From Escherichia coli O157:H7 (GTDB lineage: Bacteria > Pseudomonadota > Gammaproteobacteria > Enterobacterales > Enterobacteriaceae), in NCBI RefSeq assembly GCF_013167455.1, contig NZ_CP038328.1: a DNA stretch of 64,000 nt. The stretch is one strand, 5' to 3'. A program made the translations under genes and the position numbers. The notes under the pieces are model-generated. The model was not told where the DNA came from. It worked only from the letters and a program-made list of their open reading frames with translations, and searched no databases. Positions 2,801-14,955 of the stretch are shown one piece after another (within the stretch, counting starts at the first letter, position 1; each line of letters opens with the position of its first letter).

Positions 2801-4770
2801 CACAACTCGCCATTGGCAAACCCGCTCCCCTCGGCGCGCATTACGACGGTCAGGGCGTCAACTTCACACTTTTCTCCGCTCATGCCGAGCGGGTAGAACT
2901 GTGTGTCTTTGACGCCAATGGCCAGGAACATCGCTATGACTTGCCAGGGCACAGTGGCGACATTTGGCACGGTTATCTGCCGGATGCGCGCCCGGGTTTG
3001 CGTTATGGTTATCGCGTTCATGGCCCCTGGCAACCCGCCGAGGGGCATCGCTTTAACCCGGCGAAGTTGTTGATTGATCCTTGCGCGCGGCAAATTGACG
3101 GGGAGTTTAAAGATAACCCGCTGCTGCACGCCGGTCATAATGAACCTGACTATCGCGACAACGCCGCCATTGCGCCGAAATGCGTAGTGGTGGTTGATCA
3201 CTATGACTGGGAAGATGATGCCCCGCCGCGCACGCCGTGGGGCAGCACCATCATTTATGAAGCCCATGTTAAAGGATTAACGTACCTGCACCCGGAGATC
3301 CCGGTCGAGATCCGTGGCACTTATAAAGCCCTCGGGCATCCGGTGATGATCAACTATTTGAAACAATTGGGCATTACCGCGCTGGAACTGCTGCCAGTGG
3401 CGCAGTTTGCCAGTGAACCACGTCTGCAACGCATGGGGCTAAGTAACTACTGGGGTTACAACCCGGTGGCGATGTTTGCGCTGCATCCGGCGTATGCCTG
3501 CTCGCCAGAAACGGCGCTGCATGAGTTTCGCGATGCAATCAAAGCACTGCATAAAGCGGGTATCGAAGTCATTCTTGATATCGTGCTCAACCATAGTGCG
3601 GAACTGGACCTCGACGGCCCGTTATTCTCGCTGCGTGGGATCGACAACCGTAGCTATTATTGGATAAGAGAAGACGGCGATTATCACAACTGGACCGGTT
3701 GTGGCAACACGCTCAATTTGAGTCACCCGGCGGTGGTGGATTATGCCAGCGCCTGCCTGCGTTATTGGGTAGAAACCTGCCACGTCGATGGTTTCCGCTT
3801 TGATCTGGCGGCAGTCATGGGCCGTACGCCAGAGTTCCGTCAGGATGCGCCGTTGTTTACCGCTATCCAGAACTGCCCGGTGCTCTCGCAGGTGAAGTTA
3901 ATTGCTGAACCGTGGGATATCGCTCCTGGTGGTTATCAGGTGGGAAATTTCCCGCCGCTGTTTGCCGAGTGGAACGATCATTTCCGCGATGCTGCCCGTC
4001 GTTTCTGGCTACATTATGATTTGCCTCTGGGGGCGTTTGCCGGGCGTTTTGCTGCCTCCAGCGATGTTTTTAAACGTAATGGTCGTCTGCCGAGTGCCGC
4101 GATTAATCTCGTCACCGCGCATGACGGTTTTACGCTTCGCGACTGCGTTTGTTTCAACCATAAACACAATGAAGCAAACGGAGAAGAAAATCGCGACGGG
4201 ACCAACAACAATTACAGTAACAATCATGGTAAAGAAGGGGTAGGCGGTACCCTTGACCTGGTTGAACGGCGGCGCGACAGCATTCACGCCCTGTTAACAA
4301 CGTTGTTGCTCTCCCAGGGTACGCCGATGTTACTGGCCGGTGACGAACATGGTCACAGCCAGCATGGCAATAACAATGCCTACTGTCAGGATAACCAATT
4401 AACCTGGTTGGACTGGTCGCAGGCAAGCAGTGGTTTAACCGCATTTACCGCCGCGTTAATCCATCTGCGCAAGCGTATTCCCGCTTTGGTGGAGAATCGC
4501 TGGTGGGAAGAAGGCGACGGCAATGTCCGTTGGCTAAATCGATATGCTCAACCTTTAAGCACGGATGAGTGGCAAAACGGGCCGAAACAGCTGCAAATTC
4601 TGCTCTCGGATCGCTTTTTGATCGCAATTAACGCCACGCTTGAGGTAACAGAGATTGTTTTACCTGCTGGGGAGTGGCACGCCATTCCCCCATTCGCTGG
4701 AGAGGATAACCCAGTGATTACGGCTGTCTGGCAGGGACCTGCACACGGATTGTGTGTGTTCCAGAGATGA
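2797..4770 (+). CDS. glgX: glycogen debranching enzyme
   Basis: 657-aa [26 protein letters not shown]...; ATGA start/stop overlap with glgB. Confidence 0.97.
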
Positions 4771-4781
4771 TAAAAAAGGAG
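4743..4781 (+). promoter_or_regulatory. glgC leader: CsrA-binding hairpin (CACAC-GGAUU-GUGUG) plus GGA-containing Shine-Dalgarno
   Basis: Stem cacac/gtgtg with GGA in the loop at 4743-4757, and AAGGAG SD at 4776-4781 before the glgC ATG; matches the published CsrA repression architecture of the glgCAP leader. Confidence 0.6.
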
Positions 4782-4787
4782 TTAGTC

Positions 4788-6083
4788 ATGGTTAGTTTAG
4801 AGAAGAACGATCACTTAATGTTGGCGCGCCAGCTGCCATTGAAATCTGTTGCCCTGATACTGGCGGGAGGACGTGGTACCCGCCTGAAGGATTTAACCAA
4901 TAAGCGAGCAAAACCGGCCGTACACTTCGGCGGTAAGTTCCGCATTATCGACTTTGCGCTGTCTAACTGCATCAACTCCGGGATCCGTCGTATGGGCGTG
5001 ATCACCCAGTACCAGTCCCACACTCTGGTGCAGCACATTCAGCGCGGCTGGTCATTCTTCAATGAAGAAATGAACGAGTTTGTCGATCTGCTGCCAGCAC
5101 AGCAGAGAATGAAAGGGGAAAACTGGTATCGCGGCACCGCAGATGCGGTCACCCAAAACCTCGATATTATTCGCCGTTATAAAGCGGAATACGTGGTGAT
5201 CCTGGCGGGCGACCATATCTACAAGCAAGACTACTCGCGTATGCTTATCGATCACGTCGAAAAAGGCGCACGTTGCACCGTTGCTTGTATGCCAGTACCG
5301 ATTGAAGAAGCCTCCGCATTTGGCGTTATGGCGGTTGATGAGAACGATAAAATTATCGAATTCGTTGAAAAACCTGCTAACCCGCCGTCAATGCCGAACG
5401 ATCCGAGCAAATCTCTGGCGAGTATGGGTATCTACGTCTTTGACGCCGACTATCTGTATGAACTGCTGGAAGAAGACGATCGCGATGAGAACTCCAGCCA
5501 CGACTTTGGCAAAGATTTGATTCCCAAGATCACCGAAGCCGGTCTGGCCTATGCGCACCCGTTCCCGCTCTCTTGCGTACAATCCGATCCGGATGCCGAG
5601 CCGTACTGGCGCGATGTGGGTACGCTGGAAGCTTACTGGAAAGCGAACCTCGATCTGGCCTCTGTGGTGCCGGAACTGGATATGTACGATCGCAATTGGC
5701 CAATTCGCACCTACAATGAATCATTACCGCCAGCGAAATTCGTGCAGGATCGCTCCGGTAGCCACGGGATGACCCTTAACTCACTGGTTTCCGGCGGTTG
5801 TGTGATCTCCGGTTCGGTGGTGGTGCAGTCCGTTCTGTTCTCGCGCGTTCGCGTGAATTCATTCTGCAACATTGATTCCGCCGTATTGTTACCGGAAGTA
5901 TGGGTAGGTCGCTCGTGCCGTCTGCGCCGCTGCGTCATCGATCGTGCTTGTGTTATTCCGGAAGGCATGGTGATTGGTGAAAACGCAGAGGAAGATGCAC
6001 GTCGTTTCTATCGTTCAGAAGAAGGCATCGTGCTGGTAACGCGCGAAATGCTACGGAAGTTAGGGCATAAACAGGAGCGATAA
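4788..6083 (+). CDS. glgC: glucose-1-phosphate adenylyltransferase (ADP-glucose pyrophosphorylase)
   Basis: ORF track starts at 4752, but [20 protein letters not shown]... with AAGGAG SD corresponds to the 431-aa protein; start placed at ATG 4788. Confidence 0.95.
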
Positions 6084-7516: not shown

Positions 7517-9982
<2,466 letters not shown>

Positions 9983-9998
9983 GTTCGCTAAAAAACAG

Positions 9999-10026
9999 AA
10001 CGGGGCCACAAGGTCCCGTTTTTTTC
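9999..10026 (+). terminator. rho-independent terminator of glgCAP
   Basis: 9-bp stem (aacggggcc / ggtcccgtt, one G-U pair), loop acaa, followed by a run of 7 T. Confidence 0.8.
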
Positions 10027-10097
10027 GCCTTTATTTCGGAAAAGTGTCCAGAGGGGGCGAGGGTTCTCGGGGAGTATAATTCCGTCATTCAGGAAGA

Positions 10098-11615
10098 ATG
10101 GACAGAATGATGCCAAATAGAAAATGGATTTTGACCTCGCTGATAATGACTTTTTTCGGCATCCCCATACTGGCGCAATTTTTGGCAGCGGTTGTTGCCA
10201 TGCTGGGTGTCGGGCTTACCGGTATTATTGAAGTTTGTAATATCCTTATCACGCCAACAATTTATCTTCTACTCAACGTCTTTATGCTGACGCTGGGGGC
10301 GATAATAATATTTTTCTCTGGTCGCGTGTGGGCCGGTGATAGCGCGCCAGAAAACAGAGAAATAGCCGTCTGGCGGCAATGCTTTTTTCTCTTACCCGCG
10401 CTATTAACCCTGGTTGGCTGGATAATCACGCTACATCTGGCAGATTATCAATTTCGCCAGATGGGAGCTGGTTGGTTGGCAAACCTTATGCTTCCCTGGT
10501 TGGGCGTTTTTTTAGTCTCATTAGTGGGTGGTGAGTACTGGTGGATGGTCATTATTCCCGTTGGGGCGCATATCAGTTTTTCGCTGGGATACGCCTGGCC
10601 GACCAGATATCCTTTATCCGGCACGTCCGGACTACGTTGCCGTAACTTACTCCTGTTTCTACTTCTCTTACTTGGTATTGTCGCCGGGTATCAGGCCCAT
10701 TTATATAAGCAGCAAAATCCTGGTGTCGGTGTACGCGAAAATATTGATATCAGGGCCTGGCGACCCGATAAACTCAATAATCGACTGACGCCGCTGCGTG
10801 GCAAACCGCAAATTCAGTTTAGGCAAAACTGGCCGCGAATCGATGGCGCCACGGCTGCGTACCCAATTTATGCTTCTGCATTTTATGCATTAAGTGTAAT
10901 ACCAGAGGATTTTCACGTTTGGGAATATCTGGAGAACTCTCGTACCCCCGATGCATATAACCGGATTGTTAAAGGTGATGCCGATATTATTTTTGTGGCG
11001 CAACCCTCCGGCGGGCAGAAAAAACGCGCTGAGGAATCGGGCGTCACTTTGCTATACACGCCATTTGCCCGTGAAGCATTTGTTTTCATCGTCAATGCGG
11101 ATAATCCGGTTAATTCCCTGACTGAACAACAGGTGCGTGACATTTTCAGTGGTGCAATTACCAATTGGCGTACTGTTGGCGGTAACGATCAGGAGATCCA
11201 GACCTGGCAGCGCCCGGAAGACTCTGGCAGCCAGACAGTGATGCAATCACAGGTCATGAAAAAAGTCCGCATGATCTCGCCGCAGGAAACGGAAGTGGCA
11301 AGCGTGATGGAGGGAATGATTAAAGTCGTTGCCGAATACCGTAATACAAACAACGCAATAGGCTATACCTTCCGCTATTACGCGACGCAAATGAATGCTG
11401 ATAAAAATATAAGATTGCTAGCGATTAACGGTATTACACCGACGGCGGAAAACATTCGCAACGGCAAATATGCGTACATCGTCGATGCATTTATGGTGAC
11501 GAGAGAAAATACAACGTCAGAAACACAAAAACTGGTCGAATGGTTTTTAACGCCGCAGGGGCAGAGTCTGGTAGAAGATGTGGGATATGTGCCGCTGTAT
11601 CTAACAATGGAATAA
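10098..11615 (+). CDS. uncharacterised fusion protein: N-terminal polytopic membrane domain (about 6 predicted TM helices, residues 1-210) plus C-terminal PstS-like periplasmic phosphate/anion-binding domain
   Basis: 505-aa ORF; N-terminal half is strongly hydrophobic. C-terminal half carries PstS-family signatures as I recall them: GATAAYPIYASAF, QRPEDSGSQ (compare RADGSGTS in PstS), IGYTFRYYA, ITPTAENIRNG. Start may be M1 or M4/M5; AGGAAG SD precedes 10098. Confidence 0.8.
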   Translation: MDRMMPNRKWILTSLIMTFFGIPILAQFLAAVVAMLGVGLTGIIEVCNILITPTIYLLLNVFMLTLGAIIIFFSGRVWAGDSAPENREIAVWRQCFFLLPALLTLVGWIITLHLADYQFRQMGAGWLANLMLPWLGVFLVSLVGGEYWWMVIIPVGAHISFSLGYAWPTRYPLSGTSGLRCRNLLLFLLLLLGIVAGYQAHLYKQQNPGVGVRENIDIRAWRPDKLNNRLTPLRGKPQIQFRQNWPRIDGATAAYPIYASAFYALSVIPEDFHVWEYLENSRTPDAYNRIVKGDADIIFVAQPSGGQKKRAEESGVTLLYTPFAREAFVFIVNADNPVNSLTEQQVRDIFSGAITNWRTVGGNDQEIQTWQRPEDSGSQTVMQSQVMKKVRMISPQETEVASVMEGMIKVVAEYRNTNNAIGYTFRYYATQMNADKNIRLLAINGITPTAENIRNGKYAYIVDAFMVTRENTTSETQKLVEWFLTPQGQSLVEDVGYVPLYLTME

Positions 11616-11640
11616 CGCTCGAGAGAAAGGAATCAGCGAG

Positions 11641-12633
11641 ATGAATAAATTCACCGGTGTTTTACTATTAGGCACGGCGTTACTGGCGGGATGTGTCGAC
11701 CGGGAAGGGTACTATAACAGCGTCAGGGAAGAAGAGAGCCATGGACTGACGTCTCTGCGGGGGCAACCTGCATTACGTTACAGCGATGATTGGTCAAGAT
11801 GGCCGAGAGTGTACGGCGCTACAGCCTTATACCCGCTGTATGCCTCCGCGTATTATAAATTAGTACCCGAGCCAAAAGATAAGGATCGAACCTCGCTGGC
11901 CTGGCAGGCGTATGGTTTGCAGCAAACCCGAACAGCTGAAGCCTACGATAGTCTGATTAAAGGTTCCGCGACGGTTATTTTTGTTGCACAACCGTCGGAA
12001 GGACAGAAAAAACGTGCAGAAGAAGCGGGTGTTAAACTGAAATATACCGCTTTCGCCCGCGAAGCCTTTGTCTTTATCGTTGATATTAATAACCCGGTAA
12101 ATTCTCTCTCTGAGCACCAGGTTAAAGATATTTTTAGCGGCAAAACTAGCCGCTGGAATAAAGTAGGTGGTAGTGACGAACATATAAAAGTCTGGCAGCG
12201 CCCTGAAGATTCTGGAAGCCAAACGATTATGAAGGGGTTGGTTATGCAAGACACCCCAATGCTGCCAGCTAAAAAATCCACTGTGATTGATCTTATGGGC
12301 GGTTTAATTACTGAAGTTGCCGACTATCAAAACACGCCATCTTCCATTGGGTACACCTTCCACTATTACGTCACTCGTATGAATGACAATATGCTCAAAA
12401 TGCGCAAGCAGATTAAACTTTTGGCTATAAATGGCGTTGCGCCTACCGAGGAAAATATCCGCAACGGCACTTATCCATACATTGTGGATGCCTATATGGT
12501 GACGCGTGAAAATCCCACGCCGGAAACGCAGAAATTTGTTGACTGGTTTATAAGTCAGCAGGGGCAACAGTTGGTAGAGGATGTGGGGTATGTGCCGCTG
12601 TATGAAGCATCCCCCGAATCATCAGGACAATAA
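11641..12633 (+). CDS. PstS-like phosphate/anion-binding lipoprotein (paralog of the C-terminal domain of the upstream gene)
   Basis: 330-aa ORF; signal peptide with lipobox LLAGC; roughly 60-70% identity by eye to residues 230-505 of ORF 10098-11615, sharing the FVAQPS.GQKKRAEE, AREAFVFIV, WQRPEDSGSQT and VEDVGYVPLY blocks. Confidence 0.85.
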   Translation: MNKFTGVLLLGTALLAGCVDREGYYNSVREEESHGLTSLRGQPALRYSDDWSRWPRVYGATALYPLYASAYYKLVPEPKDKDRTSLAWQAYGLQQTRTAEAYDSLIKGSATVIFVAQPSEGQKKRAEEAGVKLKYTAFAREAFVFIVDINNPVNSLSEHQVKDIFSGKTSRWNKVGGSDEHIKVWQRPEDSGSQTIMKGLVMQDTPMLPAKKSTVIDLMGGLITEVADYQNTPSSIGYTFHYYVTRMNDNMLKMRKQIKLLAINGVAPTEENIRNGTYPYIVDAYMVTRENPTPETQKFVDWFISQQGQQLVEDVGYVPLYEASPESSGQ

Positions 12634-13235
12634 TGATGAATATAATCAGACTTTATATTTATCCGTTATTTCTCGGCTTTGTTATTGTACCGTTGTTGGT
12701 GTGGCCGACGGTGGTTGCGCTGGCTGCCTGTGTAATCACGCTGAGTTTTCTGGGAGAAATACTGTTCTCAATCCCGCTCATGCACAGGCGTATTTCCCTT
12801 CTGCAATTACAACTATGGTTATCGGCTGAATATGCGCTTTTCTTCTGTGCAATGGTGGGCGTTGGTTGGCAATTTGCGCGCAGAACGCCACCTGAATTGA
12901 AAAGCAGACTGCATTGTTGGCTGGTATTTGCACCAGTTTATTTCTGGTTGCTCCTGTGGAATATCATTTTTTATGTCGCGCCAGCGCAAATTGCTTTGCT
13001 GGAAAATATGCGCAGTTTCTTTCTGACAGTTGTCTGGCTCCCACTGAATTTTTCGCCATTTTGGTCTCAACAGTGGATCGACTTTGTCGGTCCGATAAGT
13101 GCACAGCTTGGTTTTGCGTTGGGATATTATTGCCAGTGGCGTAGCAAAAATAGAAGCCAGATACGGAAGTGGAGTGAGTGGGGAACGTGCTTAAGTTTTG
13201 TTACGTTGGGTATGATGGCGTGGGCTTTGCGGTAA
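12633..13235 (+). CDS. integral membrane protein (about 6 TM), paralog of the N-terminal membrane domain of ORF 10098-11615
   Basis: 200-aa hydrophobic ORF; its ATG overlaps the upstream stop (TAATG); shares LGFALGYYCQW versus ISFSLGYAWPT and a similar helix spacing with the ORF1 N-domain. Confidence 0.7.
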   Translation: MMNIIRLYIYPLFLGFVIVPLLVWPTVVALAACVITLSFLGEILFSIPLMHRRISLLQLQLWLSAEYALFFCAMVGVGWQFARRTPPELKSRLHCWLVFAPVYFWLLLWNIIFYVAPAQIALLENMRSFFLTVVWLPLNFSPFWSQQWIDFVGPISAQLGFALGYYCQWRSKNRSQIRKWSEWGTCLSFVTLGMMAWALR

Positions 13236-13288
13236 TTCCCTGAATCAAAAAGTAGGTCAGATTGTTGACAACGTGGCGCTTTGTTCAT

Positions 13289-13387
13289 GCCTGATGCGGC
13301 GTGAACGCCTTATCAGGCCTACAAAATCATGCAAATTCAACATATTGCATAAACCACGTAGGCCTGATAAGCGTAGCGCATCAGGCA
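13289..13387. repeat. BIME: two REP elements in inverted orientation
   Basis: gcctgatgcggcgtgaacgccttatcaggcctac (13289-13322) and gtaggcctgataagcgtagcgcatcaggca (13358-13387) match the enterobacterial REP consensus. Confidence 0.85.
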
Positions 13388-13449
13388 ATTTTGTGTTTGT
13401 CATCAGTCTCAGGCCAGATTGAAATCTGACCTGATCACCTTACGTTAAT

Positions 13450-14955
13450 TTACGACGCCAGCGACAACTTCTGCTGCGTATATTCCACCAGCCACTGACT
13501 CACACGAGATTGTTGATCCGCATTCAGCCACATGCCTTGTTTTGTGCGACGCCACAGGGCATCGTCGGCGCGGCGGACCCACTCGTGGTCGACCAGATAT
13601 TTCAGCTCCGTTTCGTAGAACTCATGACCGAAATCTTCCCCAAGATCGCTTACCGCTCCCGCATTGCCGAGCAGCAGCTCGCTGTTGCTGCCATAAGTAC
13701 GCGCGTAATGACGTGCCAGCGATTCGGTCAGGAACGGATAACGGCGGCGTAAGCGAGCGGCATAATCGTCGCGGTCGCCCTCGATGGCGCCACCCGGTAG
13801 CACGCTCTCTTTCGTCCATGCCGGGCCAATACCCTGATAATACGGCGTTAGTTTTTCCAGCGCATGTTCCGCCAGTTTTCGGTAGGTGGTCAGCTTACCG
13901 CCGAATACCGACAGCAGCGGTGCTTTGCCATTTTCATCATGAATATCAAGGGTGTAATCACGGGTAATAGCCTGCGGCGAGTCGGACTCATCATCACACA
14001 GCGGACGCACACCGGAGTAGGTCCAGACGATATCGTCACGGCTAAGCTGTTTTTTAAAGTGCGCGTTATACACTTTCAGCAGGTAATTGATTTCACTCTC
14101 TTCAATCTTCACTGCTTTCGGATCGCCTTTGTATTCCACATCGGTGGTGCCGATGATGGAAAACTCGTCCATCCACGGGATCACGAACACAATACGTTTA
14201 TCTTCGTTTTGCAGAATGTAGGCCTGCTTTTGGGTATGCACGCGCGGCACCACAATATGGCTGCCTTTGATCAGGCGAATGCCATAAGGCGAAGGCAGAT
14301 GCATCCCGTCGTCGAAGAACTGTTTCACCCACGGGCCGGTGGCGTTAACCAGGCCGCGCGCTTGCCAGCTATATTTTTTGCCGGTATCGATATCTTCCGC
14401 TTCCACAATCCACAGGCCGTTTTCGCGACGAGCAGAAGTAGCACGAGTACGAGTAAGCACTTCGCCGCCTTTACGCACCACCATCTGGGCGTTGGCGAGC
14501 ACCAGACGGGCATCGTCTACCCAACAGTCGGAATATTCGAATCCGCGCTTAATTTCCGGTTTTAACACTGAATTTGCGCCAAAACGCAAACCAGTTGATC
14601 CCGGCAGGCTGGTGCGTTTACCCAGATGATCGTACATAAACAGACCAATGCGAATCATCCACGCCGGGCGCAGATGCGGACGATGTGGCAGGCGAAAACG
14701 CATCGGGAAGGCGATATGCGGGGCCATTTTCAGCAGCACTTCACGTTCAGCCAGCGCCTCGCTGACCAGGCGGAATTCATAGTGCTCAAGGTAGCGCAGG
14801 CCACCGTGAATGAGTTTTGAACTGGCGGAAGAGGTCGCGCAAGCGAGATCCTGCGCCTCCAGCATCAGCACGGATAAACCGCGTCCAGCGGCGTCTGCCG
14901 CGATACCAGCACCATTGATGCCGCCACCTATCACAATCAGATCTTTGGTTTCCAT
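13450..14955 (-). CDS. glpD: aerobic sn-glycerol-3-phosphate dehydrogenase
   Basis: ORF track 13450-14970; protein METKDLIVIGGGINGAGIAADAAGRGL... (FAD GGGxxG motif); start set at the internal Met to give the 501-aa form. Confidence 0.95.
   Translation of the reverse strand: METKDLIVIGGGINGAGIAADAAGRGLSVLMLEAQDLACATSSASSKLIHGGLRYLEHYEFRLVSEALAEREVLLKMAPHIAFPMRFRLPHRPHLRPAWMIRIGLFMYDHLGKRTSLPGSTGLRFGANSVLKPEIKRGFEYSDCWVDDARLVLANAQMVVRKGGEVLTRTRATSARRENGLWIVEAEDIDTGKKYSWQARGLVNATGPWVKQFFDDGMHLPSPYGIRLIKGSHIVVPRVHTQKQAYILQNEDKRIVFVIPWMDEFSIIGTTDVEYKGDPKAVKIEESEINYLLKVYNAHFKKQLSRDDIVWTYSGVRPLCDDESDSPQAITRDYTLDIHDENGKAPLLSVFGGKLTTYRKLAEHALEKLTPYYQGIGPAWTKESVLPGGAIEGDRDDYAARLRRRYPFLTESLARHYARTYGSNSELLLGNAGAVSDLGEDFGHEFYETELKYLVDHEWVRRADDALWRRTKQGMWLNADQQSRVSQWLVEYTQQKLSLAS

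Follow-up and report, generated by a model that had tools for sequence, protein, structure and literature searches.

The window analyzed here, a stretch of 64,000 nucleotides (nt) from Escherichia coli O157:H7 (NCBI RefSeq assembly GCF_013167455.1, contig NZ_CP038328.1), carries three open reading frames (ORF1 to ORF3) between glgP (7535-9982, plus strand), the upstream neighbor of ORF1, and the convergent gene glpD (13450-14955, minus strand; 501 amino acids [aa]). ORF1 (10098-11615, plus strand; start at 10107 in the Prokaryotic Genome Annotation Pipeline [PGAP]) encodes a 505-aa protein with an N-terminal multi-span membrane region and a C-terminal PBP_like_2 (PstS-like) domain. ORF2 (11641-12633, plus strand) encodes a 330-aa PBP_like_2 protein with a lipoprotein-type leader (LLAGC), and ORF3 (12633-13235, plus strand) a 200-aa membrane protein without a family match. 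Positions 9900-13500 match O157:H7 chromosomes at 100% identity. The stop codons of the convergent ORF3 (13235) and glpD (13450) are separated by a 214-bp spacer (13236-13449), which holds one complete bacterial interspersed mosaic element of type 1 (BIME-1; also RIB, reiterative IHF-BIME, or RIP, repetitive IHF-binding palindromic element), about 153 nt long with its flanks (13258-13410). Here we describe this element, the hairpins that bracket it, and the relation of the three-gene cluster to yzgL of E. coli K-12.

Read from ORF3 toward glpD, the BIME-1 is ordered as left flank, y-type repetitive extragenic palindrome (REP), L linker, inverted z1 REP, and right flank. The left flank ("A" motif; 13258-13288, plus strand) is CAGATTGTTGACAACGTGGCGCTTTGTTCAT; it and the right flank ("B" motif; 13388-13410, plus strand), ATTTTGTGTTTGTCATCAGTCTC, are imperfect terminal inverted repeats of each other. 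REP1 (13289-13322, plus strand), GCCTGATGCGGCGTGAACGCCTTATCAGGCCTAC, matches the y-REP pattern with no mismatches. REP2 (13358-13387, minus strand) is inverted relative to REP1, and its positions 13358-13386 are the z1 sequence GCCTGATGCGCTACGCTTATCAGGCCTAC, again with no mismatches. The 35-nt L linker (13323-13357, plus strand) lies between the two and matches the Rfam family ES036. Each REP pattern was found once in the 64 kb, with zero matches expected from 100 shuffles, and an inverted-repeat scan found both sets of REP arms fully paired (I2, 14/14 nt; I4, 11/11 nt). A first-pass annotation of this DNA had placed two inverted REPs in the spacer; both lie where it put them and together constitute a BIME. 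The element is a single extragenic unit at the 3' end of a transcription unit, without a tandem array. BIME-1 is defined by y and z1 in single copy with a long conserved L, frequently with an IHF site (PMC3333891).

Comparison with other genomic sites supported this assignment. REP1 aligned with the y REP of three unlinked BIME-1 copies, and the BIME-1 extended by flanking sequence (about 30 nt on the left, about 23 nt on the right) aligned with the unlinked copies at yfiE-srmB, fepA-entD, and ybiA-rhlE; the alignment with the K-12 yfiE-srmB copy covered about 144 nt. Only a few substitutions separated the L linker from those of the K-12 glpD, yfiE-srmB, fepA-entD, and ybiA-rhlE copies. Across 5,426 complete E. 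coli genomes, the set used for all population counts below, the 99-nt y-L-z1 unit had a median of 16 megablast places per genome, and 5,425 genomes contained a place with at least 80% coverage. The segment 13323-13365 (L plus the start of z1) reached 39.3 bits against ES036, whose gathering score is 37.6, and the REPs remained below threshold for naRNA4 (RF02564; 18.9-34.8 bits versus a gathering score of 59.5). By similarity, the ES036 match shows that the linker belongs to a repeat family; the match does not imply small RNA (sRNA) production at glpD. Since a BIME-1 linker exceeds its gathering score, ES036 (CssrF sRNA) is, at least in part, a model of a dispersed repeat. Folding of the spacer was stronger than that of shuffled sequences on both strands (z = -7.4 and -7.6).

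By analogy with elements discussed in the literature (PMC3333891, PMC2817692, PMC3184786), this BIME-1 probably protects mRNA 3' ends and attenuates read-through at glpD. REP stem-loops in the 3' untranslated region of glpD, or in read-through from ORF3, would shield upstream mRNA from 3' exonucleases, and the element would attenuate read-through between the convergent ORF3 and glpD. The L linker would offer a putative IHF site: 13335-13347 (ATTCAACATATTG) agrees with the IHF consensus WATCAANNNNTTR at 12 of 13 positions. Two observations speak against the proposed role. The spacer contains no exact match to the IHF consensus, and a scan of 12900-13700 for consensus promoters and simple terminators found nothing within the spacer. 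Gyrase cleavage has been documented for BIME-2 rather than BIME-1 (PMC6379681).

The spacer between glgP and glpD measures 615 bp in K-12 (NC_000913.3) and 3,467 bp in the O157 window, so that 2,852 bp are missing in K-12. The first-pass annotation had suggested that yzgL is a deletion derivative of this locus and had proposed aligning the K-12 region to the cluster; this alignment bore the suggestion out. The K-12 interval aligned in two pieces that overlap by 8 nt, the first to 9857-10331 (90.8%) and the second, immediately after it, to 13176-13569 (94.9%); yzgL matched ORF1 and ORF3, and K-12 held no intact copies. The 93-aa yzgL product begins as ORF1 (residues 6-78) and continues for 20 residues that are read out of frame from the final 60 nt of ORF3, and its stop codon is a TGA 8 nt past the ORF3 stop. 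K-12 has kept the first 78 codons of ORF1 as the 5' part of yzgL and has lost ORF2 entirely.

To read the junction, we used E. coli B as the parental-type allele; its cluster is intact, and its ORF1 5' end is 97.7% identical to K-12. The E. coli B endpoints are ...GGGGCGAGTG/TGGGC... and ...TTGAGTGAGTG/GGGAAC..., and K-12 reads ...GGGGCGAGTGGGGAAC...; from this comparison, the junction is a 5-nt microhomology, GAGTG, which E. coli B-type alleles carry at each of the two sites and K-12 and strain PCN033 a single time. The left breakpoint (10324-10328, plus strand) is GCGTG in O157 and GAGTG in E. coli B, which is K-12-like there. The right breakpoint (13176-13180, plus strand) is GAGTG, with the ORF3 stop codon 56 nt and REP1 109 nt downstream. 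A 2,852-bp deletion joined ORF1 codon 78 to ORF3 codon ~182 at GAGTG, out of frame and with the BIME untouched, and the junction anatomy points to replication slippage or illegitimate end-joining, not homologous recombination. yzgL is thereby shown to be the microhomology deletion scar of a three-gene cluster. Three points sit less comfortably with this origin. The O157 allele differs at the left site, so the 5-nt microhomology is read via other alleles; the nearest relatives of the two K-12 pieces differ (left, E. coli B at 97.7%; right, O157 at 94.5%); and a search for a parental allele found no sampled intact allele more than 94.5% identical to the right-hand K-12 piece. Given the last two, the direct parent is unsampled, and later recombination must be assumed.

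The alleles of K-12 and PCN033 bear on whether this deletion arose once or repeatedly at the same microhomology, for example in each of these two lineages. Repeated origin gains some support from the divergence of the two deletion alleles, which differ by 6% overall, and from their left pieces, which are nearest to different intact haplotypes (PCN033 to ECONIH1, 95.4%; K-12 to E. coli B). The junctions, however, are identical to the base, and the right piece of PCN033 is nearest to that of K-12 (94.1%) and at most 91.6% identical to any intact allele, a pattern that fits one event with recombination of the left flank. Recurrent deletion is therefore rather unlikely in our judgment, and we read the two alleles as one old deletion followed by flank recombination.

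Two kinds of repeat near the deleted segment had been put forward in the first-pass annotation as substrates for the loss, namely, the paired REPs and two diverged direct repeats of about 0.9 kb. The latter are real and correspond to the two PBP_like_2 domains: copy 1 is the ORF1 binding domain (10767-11603, plus strand), and copy 2 is the ORF2 binding domain (11728-12606, plus strand). The two proteins share 57% identity between ORF1 residues 224-501 and ORF2 residues 30-321 (E = 9e-117), and the underlying repeats (~0.85 kb) are about 67% identical at the DNA level over 634 nt, with a longest common exact word of 15 nt. Both repeat types are thus present where they had been placed, and BIMEs are known polymorphism hotspots (PMC3333891); a deletion by REP/BIME recombination or by unequal crossing-over between the paralogous repeats would accord with both facts. 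A second haplotype also lends this some weight. In the DG341 type (strain DG341-1), a chaperone-usher fimbrial operon replaces most of ORF1, leaving short pieces of ORF1 and ORF2 and the ORF3 5' end, and one deletion endpoint lies in the BIME flank, 7-13 nt upstream of REP1. This remnant (positions 4717-5300 of locus L006) corresponds to window positions 11559-11672, 12667-12840, and 13276-13575, and from its sequence it is a second, independent remnant of the cluster.

The K-12 breakpoints nevertheless lie outside both repeat types. K-12 keeps both REPs and the linker intact, with REP1 109 bp downstream of the right breakpoint. Both binding-domain copies lie wholly within the deleted DNA and are gone from K-12; unequal crossing-over would have left a hybrid binding-protein gene, and none is there. 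Identity of about 67% with an uninterrupted match of at most 15 nt is probably too little for RecA-dependent exchange. Even the last junction of the DG341 type, which joins ORF3 at 12834-12840 to the BIME left flank at 13276-13282, is a 7-nt microhomology (GCGCTTT) in the flank and not a REP-REP exchange. The alignment refutes mediation of the K-12 deletion by either repeat type, which we regard as highly improbable, and the junction anatomy indicates that the REPs and the paralogous repeats had no detectable part in it.

In Escherichia sp. E1V33 (95% identity) and E. marmotae, the glgP-glpD interval contains the same three genes and the BIME. At this site, E. albertii has ORF3 and the BIME, preceded either by ORF1 and ORF2 or by an alternative middle cassette. 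The genomic context of E. albertii and relatives was obtained through ORF3 homologues; an ORF2 scan of one genome per species returned two loci only, and its E. albertii contig ends inside ORF2. The ORF1 homologue of E. albertii NBRC 107761 (positions 4323-5840 of locus L015) appears split into reading frames of 218 and 285 aa and is possibly a frameshift pseudogene. These same-site clusters indicate that the long form is ancestral, and the term "island" used in the first-pass annotation is misleading for it. According to the opposite polarity, the short K-12 form would be ancestral and the three-ORF segment a horizontally acquired island. Slightly lower G+C content (0.43-0.50 at 10000-13500, compared with 0.49-0.58 in the flanking glgP and glpD), the restriction of ORF3 homologues to Escherichia in a homologue search, and the existence of alternative cassettes at the locus are in keeping with acquisition. 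An insertion cannot, however, yield a gene such as yzgL, in which the ORF1 5' end is fused out of frame to the ORF3 3' end, and clusters or related versions of them are found at the same site in other species. No integrase, tRNA, or island boundary of direct repeats was seen at the locus. We give the acquired-island polarity virtually no credence.

Within E. coli, the interval takes at least six structural forms at window positions 9983-13449 (represented by loci L003 to L008): the three-gene cluster in intact form, two forms in which unrelated hypothetical genes replace ORF2, two that carry a chaperone-usher fimbrial operon, and the yzgL scar. The intact type was found in about 882 of the 5,426 genomes, including O157, E. 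coli B, and BL21, and the yzgL junction in about 1,335, or about a quarter (1,221 at 99% identity or more and 114 at 95-99%). An ORF3 tail with the BIME and glpD was present in about 2,129 genomes. Other cassettes consist of ORF1, two or three unrelated hypothetical genes, and an ORF3 homologue, or are fimbrial-operon variants; these types are without the BIME and have a different GC-rich terminator hairpin adjoining glpD. Allelic divergence is 5-12% and reaches into the ORF1 5' end, and homology among all haplotypes restarts exactly at the glpD stop codon. Because homology resumes only there, the BIME is part of the variable segment; it does not mark a conserved border between island and glpD, as had been proposed earlier. 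The BIME-free haplotypes (L003, positions 4122-4172; L004; L005) carry a different spacer of 52 nt, in which the hairpin CCCGGTTG-N5-CAACCGGG precedes a T-rich run on the glpD-sense strand, and so the species has two unrelated glpD 3' ends. A 2026 typing paper lists the glgP-glpD region as "hotspot A," undissected (PMC13185298).

The products of the cluster deserve more cautious naming than they have received. The RefSeq product name is [quoted passage not shown] for each of ORF1 and ORF2; for ORF3 it is "hypothetical protein." ORF1 and ORF2 scored 101.5 and 105.1 bits against PBP_like_2 (Pfam; cutoff, 27), and 122.2 and 119.1 bits against TIGR02136, the curated PstS family of NCBIfam, under its cutoff of 206.6. 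No permease or ATPase gene, the partners of a PstS transporter, adjoins ORF1-ORF3, which are the only genes of the glgP-glpD interval. With the curated cutoff missed and these partners absent nearby, the PstS label probably overstates what ORF1 and ORF2 do. The architecture of ORF1 is itself unusual, with the binding domain fused to a membrane region of about 200 residues. Models of defense systems in PADLOC gave zero matches to the ORF1-3 proteins and those of the alternative cassettes, and NCBIfam gave PstS matches below threshold only. The N-terminal membrane region of ORF1 (10098-10700) and ORF3 (12633-13235) have in common a 12-residue motif, P[VI][GS]A[HQ][IL][SG]F[SA]LGY, with the same residue number, 154, in each (E = 0.075). 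The two may be distant paralogues, and the cluster would then be laid out as membrane-binder, binder, and membrane.

We turn to how the BIME-1 came to lie beside glpD. In E. albertii and E. marmotae, it is bracketed by a 22-nt hairpin, AGGTYAGATTGAAATYTGACCT, that is present in two complete direct copies with a spacing of 175 nt (4619-4640 and 4794-4815 of locus L016). The glpD-proximal copy in the window (13411-13432, minus strand) is AGGCCAGATTGAAATCTGACCT and lies 17 nt after the glpD stop codon. The distal, ORF3-side copy survives in E. coli as a remnant (13254-13264, plus strand), AGGTCAGATTG, shortened by the loss of 18 nt between two AGATTG repeats. On the glpD-sense strand, ACTTTTTGATT comes directly after the distal copy; judged by sequence, a single hairpin with this U-tract would be a canonical intrinsic terminator for glpD.

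Similar hairpin duplicates were observed at other BIME-1 loci. At yfiE-srmB in K-12, two 25-nt hairpin copies flank the element with a spacing of 176 nt (546-570 and 722-746 of locus L011), and a precise empty site with a single hairpin is found in O157, in IHE3034, and in about 45% of 40 sampled rows. The hairpin of this empty site is intermediate in sequence between the two K-12 copies. Single-hairpin empty sites also occur at the fbp and ysgA-metE loci. We considered katE-chbG as a fourth filled/empty pair and rejected it; O157 has a different, shorter allele there and no clean empty site. Strain HH97 (L025) is 100% identical at yfiE-srmB to a synthetic empty site made from the filled K-12 allele and keeps the left-copy hairpin variant of K-12. 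From its sequence, HH97 looks like a recent, precise secondary loss of BIME-1 by recombination between the flanking repeats. Some strains, such as CFSAN061769 (L026), carry an IS621 (IS110-like) transposase gene in the yfiE-srmB spacer at the place of the K-12 BIME-1.

A survey of metagenome contigs extended this comparison to 20 distinct BIME-1 loci (labeled L027 to L146). At about 9 of the 20, direct duplicates of a locus-specific GC-rich hairpin of 17-27 nt were spaced 172-181 nt apart, with the left copy ending about 30 nt before y and the right copy starting about 23 nt after z1. None of 200 shuffles reached the observed score at six loci, and p was 0.03 or less at three more. At most of the remaining loci, a hairpin abuts one end of the element. 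The two ends are imperfect inverted repeats of each other over about 15 nt (xAGAyTGwTGACAAA): across the 20 loci, the left-end consensus CAaATTGtTgACAAAG matches the reverse-complemented right-end consensus GAGAcTGaTGACAAAC at about 12 of 15 positions. The hairpins might instead be no signature of insertion at all, each serving as the terminator of one of the convergent genes, with the BIME having landed between them. The glpD and yfiE-srmB loci are indeed both flanked by convergent genes, a setting in which a pair of terminators would be of use. Within a locus, however, the two copies are direct repeats of the same locus-specific sequence and are 80-100% identical; the geometry and spacing are constant at about 9 of 20 unrelated loci; and BIME-free strains have exactly one hairpin copy at three loci. 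Separate terminators for each gene are an unlikely explanation of this arrangement.

These loci are most simply read as insertion of BIME-1 into terminator-like hairpins with duplication of the target. By analogy with them, BIME-1 most likely inserted at the glpD terminator hairpin before the species diverged. A copy of a dispersed noncoding element would have entered this hairpin ahead of the split between E. coli, E. marmotae, and E. albertii, duplicating the hairpin on both sides, and E. coli would later have lost 18 nt of the ORF3-side copy by slippage between the AGATTG repeats. Searches at glpD itself ran counter to this history. A synthetic empty-site query found no BIME-free ORF3-glpD spacer in the 5,426 E. 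coli genomes: it matched 2,129 at a coverage of at least 80%, and those in a 60-row sample were all two pieces spanning about 278 nt, that is, filled sites. An exact degenerate empty-site pattern likewise retrieved nothing from the metagenome contigs. Insertion at glpD rests on the flanking hairpin copies and on the analogy with other loci. As a general and tentative proposal, which we think possible and somewhat doubtful, BIME-1 may be a mobile element of about 153 nt whose ends are imperfect inverted repeats, whose targets are hairpins like those of intrinsic terminators, and whose insertion duplicates the entire hairpin (17-27 nt); the element at glpD would be one ancient insertion. A target duplication as long as the hairpin would imply staggered cuts, one at each foot of an extruded hairpin or cruciform.

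Taken as a whole, our best explanation, which spans the identity, origin, and putative role of the BIME-1 and the yzgL deletion, is one in which we have high confidence. The element is a standard BIME-1, and as a finding it is ordinary; the base-level anatomy of the yzgL deletion is new detail of an ordinary kind. The identity of yzgL is nonetheless fixed by it, as the scar of a 2.85-kb microhomology deletion with an out-of-frame ORF1-ORF3 fusion. E. coli B/BL21 and O157 retain a membrane/binding-protein cluster of three genes that is missing from K-12. The assumption that neighboring repeats caused the loss of this cluster is corrected, and the glgP-glpD spacer is documented as a multi-allelic hotspot. 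The novelty of the hairpin-duplication footprint is uncertain. Work by Bachellier et al. from 1997 reportedly refers in its abstract to "excisions of a whole BIME-1," and the footprint may already be described there. We did not find it described in the searchable literature, which excludes key older papers (Bachellier et al. 1997; Boccard and Prentki 1993). How REPs and BIMEs spread is still unsettled. If true, hairpin duplication would be a concrete, testable footprint of REP/BIME mobility, and a reproducible footprint with natural filled/empty pairs would permit direct tests of mechanism and of terminator preference.

Compared with known systems, the O157 element agrees with BIME-1 (RIB/RIP) in its y REP, inverted z1 REP, and long conserved L, and nothing essential differs. 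Both REP stems of the O157 copy have T/A for G/C at one paired position (GCCTGAT...ATCAGGC), the linker has C for T inside the unspecified part of the IHF site, and the flanking hairpin on the ORF3 side is truncated in E. coli. The Rfam families RF02751 (ES036, CssrF) and RF02564 (naRNA4) were defined from other REP/BIME loci. For K-12 yzgL (b3427), existing annotation reads "putative uncharacterized protein" or, in PGAP, [quoted passage not shown] Pipelines thus already see the N-terminal binding-protein fragment, and what is added here is the out-of-frame 3' part derived from ORF3. We found no paper on the origin of yzgL or on its base-level deletion anatomy; laboratories use the gene as a neutral integration site (PMC6010332). 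The deletion has the same short repeat endpoints (5 nt), with one copy kept, as other microhomology (illegitimate, slipped-mispairing) deletions in E. coli and is a routine example of them without any difference, the class being assigned from junction anatomy alone.

The closest comparison for the hairpin-duplication footprint is with miniature inverted-repeat transposable elements (MITEs). TnpA-REP/RAYT (REP-associated tyrosine transposase), which has been implicated for REPs, is a member of an enzyme family whose action leaves no target duplication (PMC2817692), and according to one review, MITE signatures are missing from REPs. BIME-1 is like MITEs such as ERIC/IRU and Correia in having terminal inverted repeats, direct target duplicates on its flanks, and presence/absence polymorphism with precise empty sites. 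It differs from them in its duplicated target, which is long, varies in length (17-27 nt), and in every case comprises an entire GC-rich hairpin. DDE transposases, for their part, generate a fixed duplication of 2-10 bp, unlike the footprint of BIME-1.

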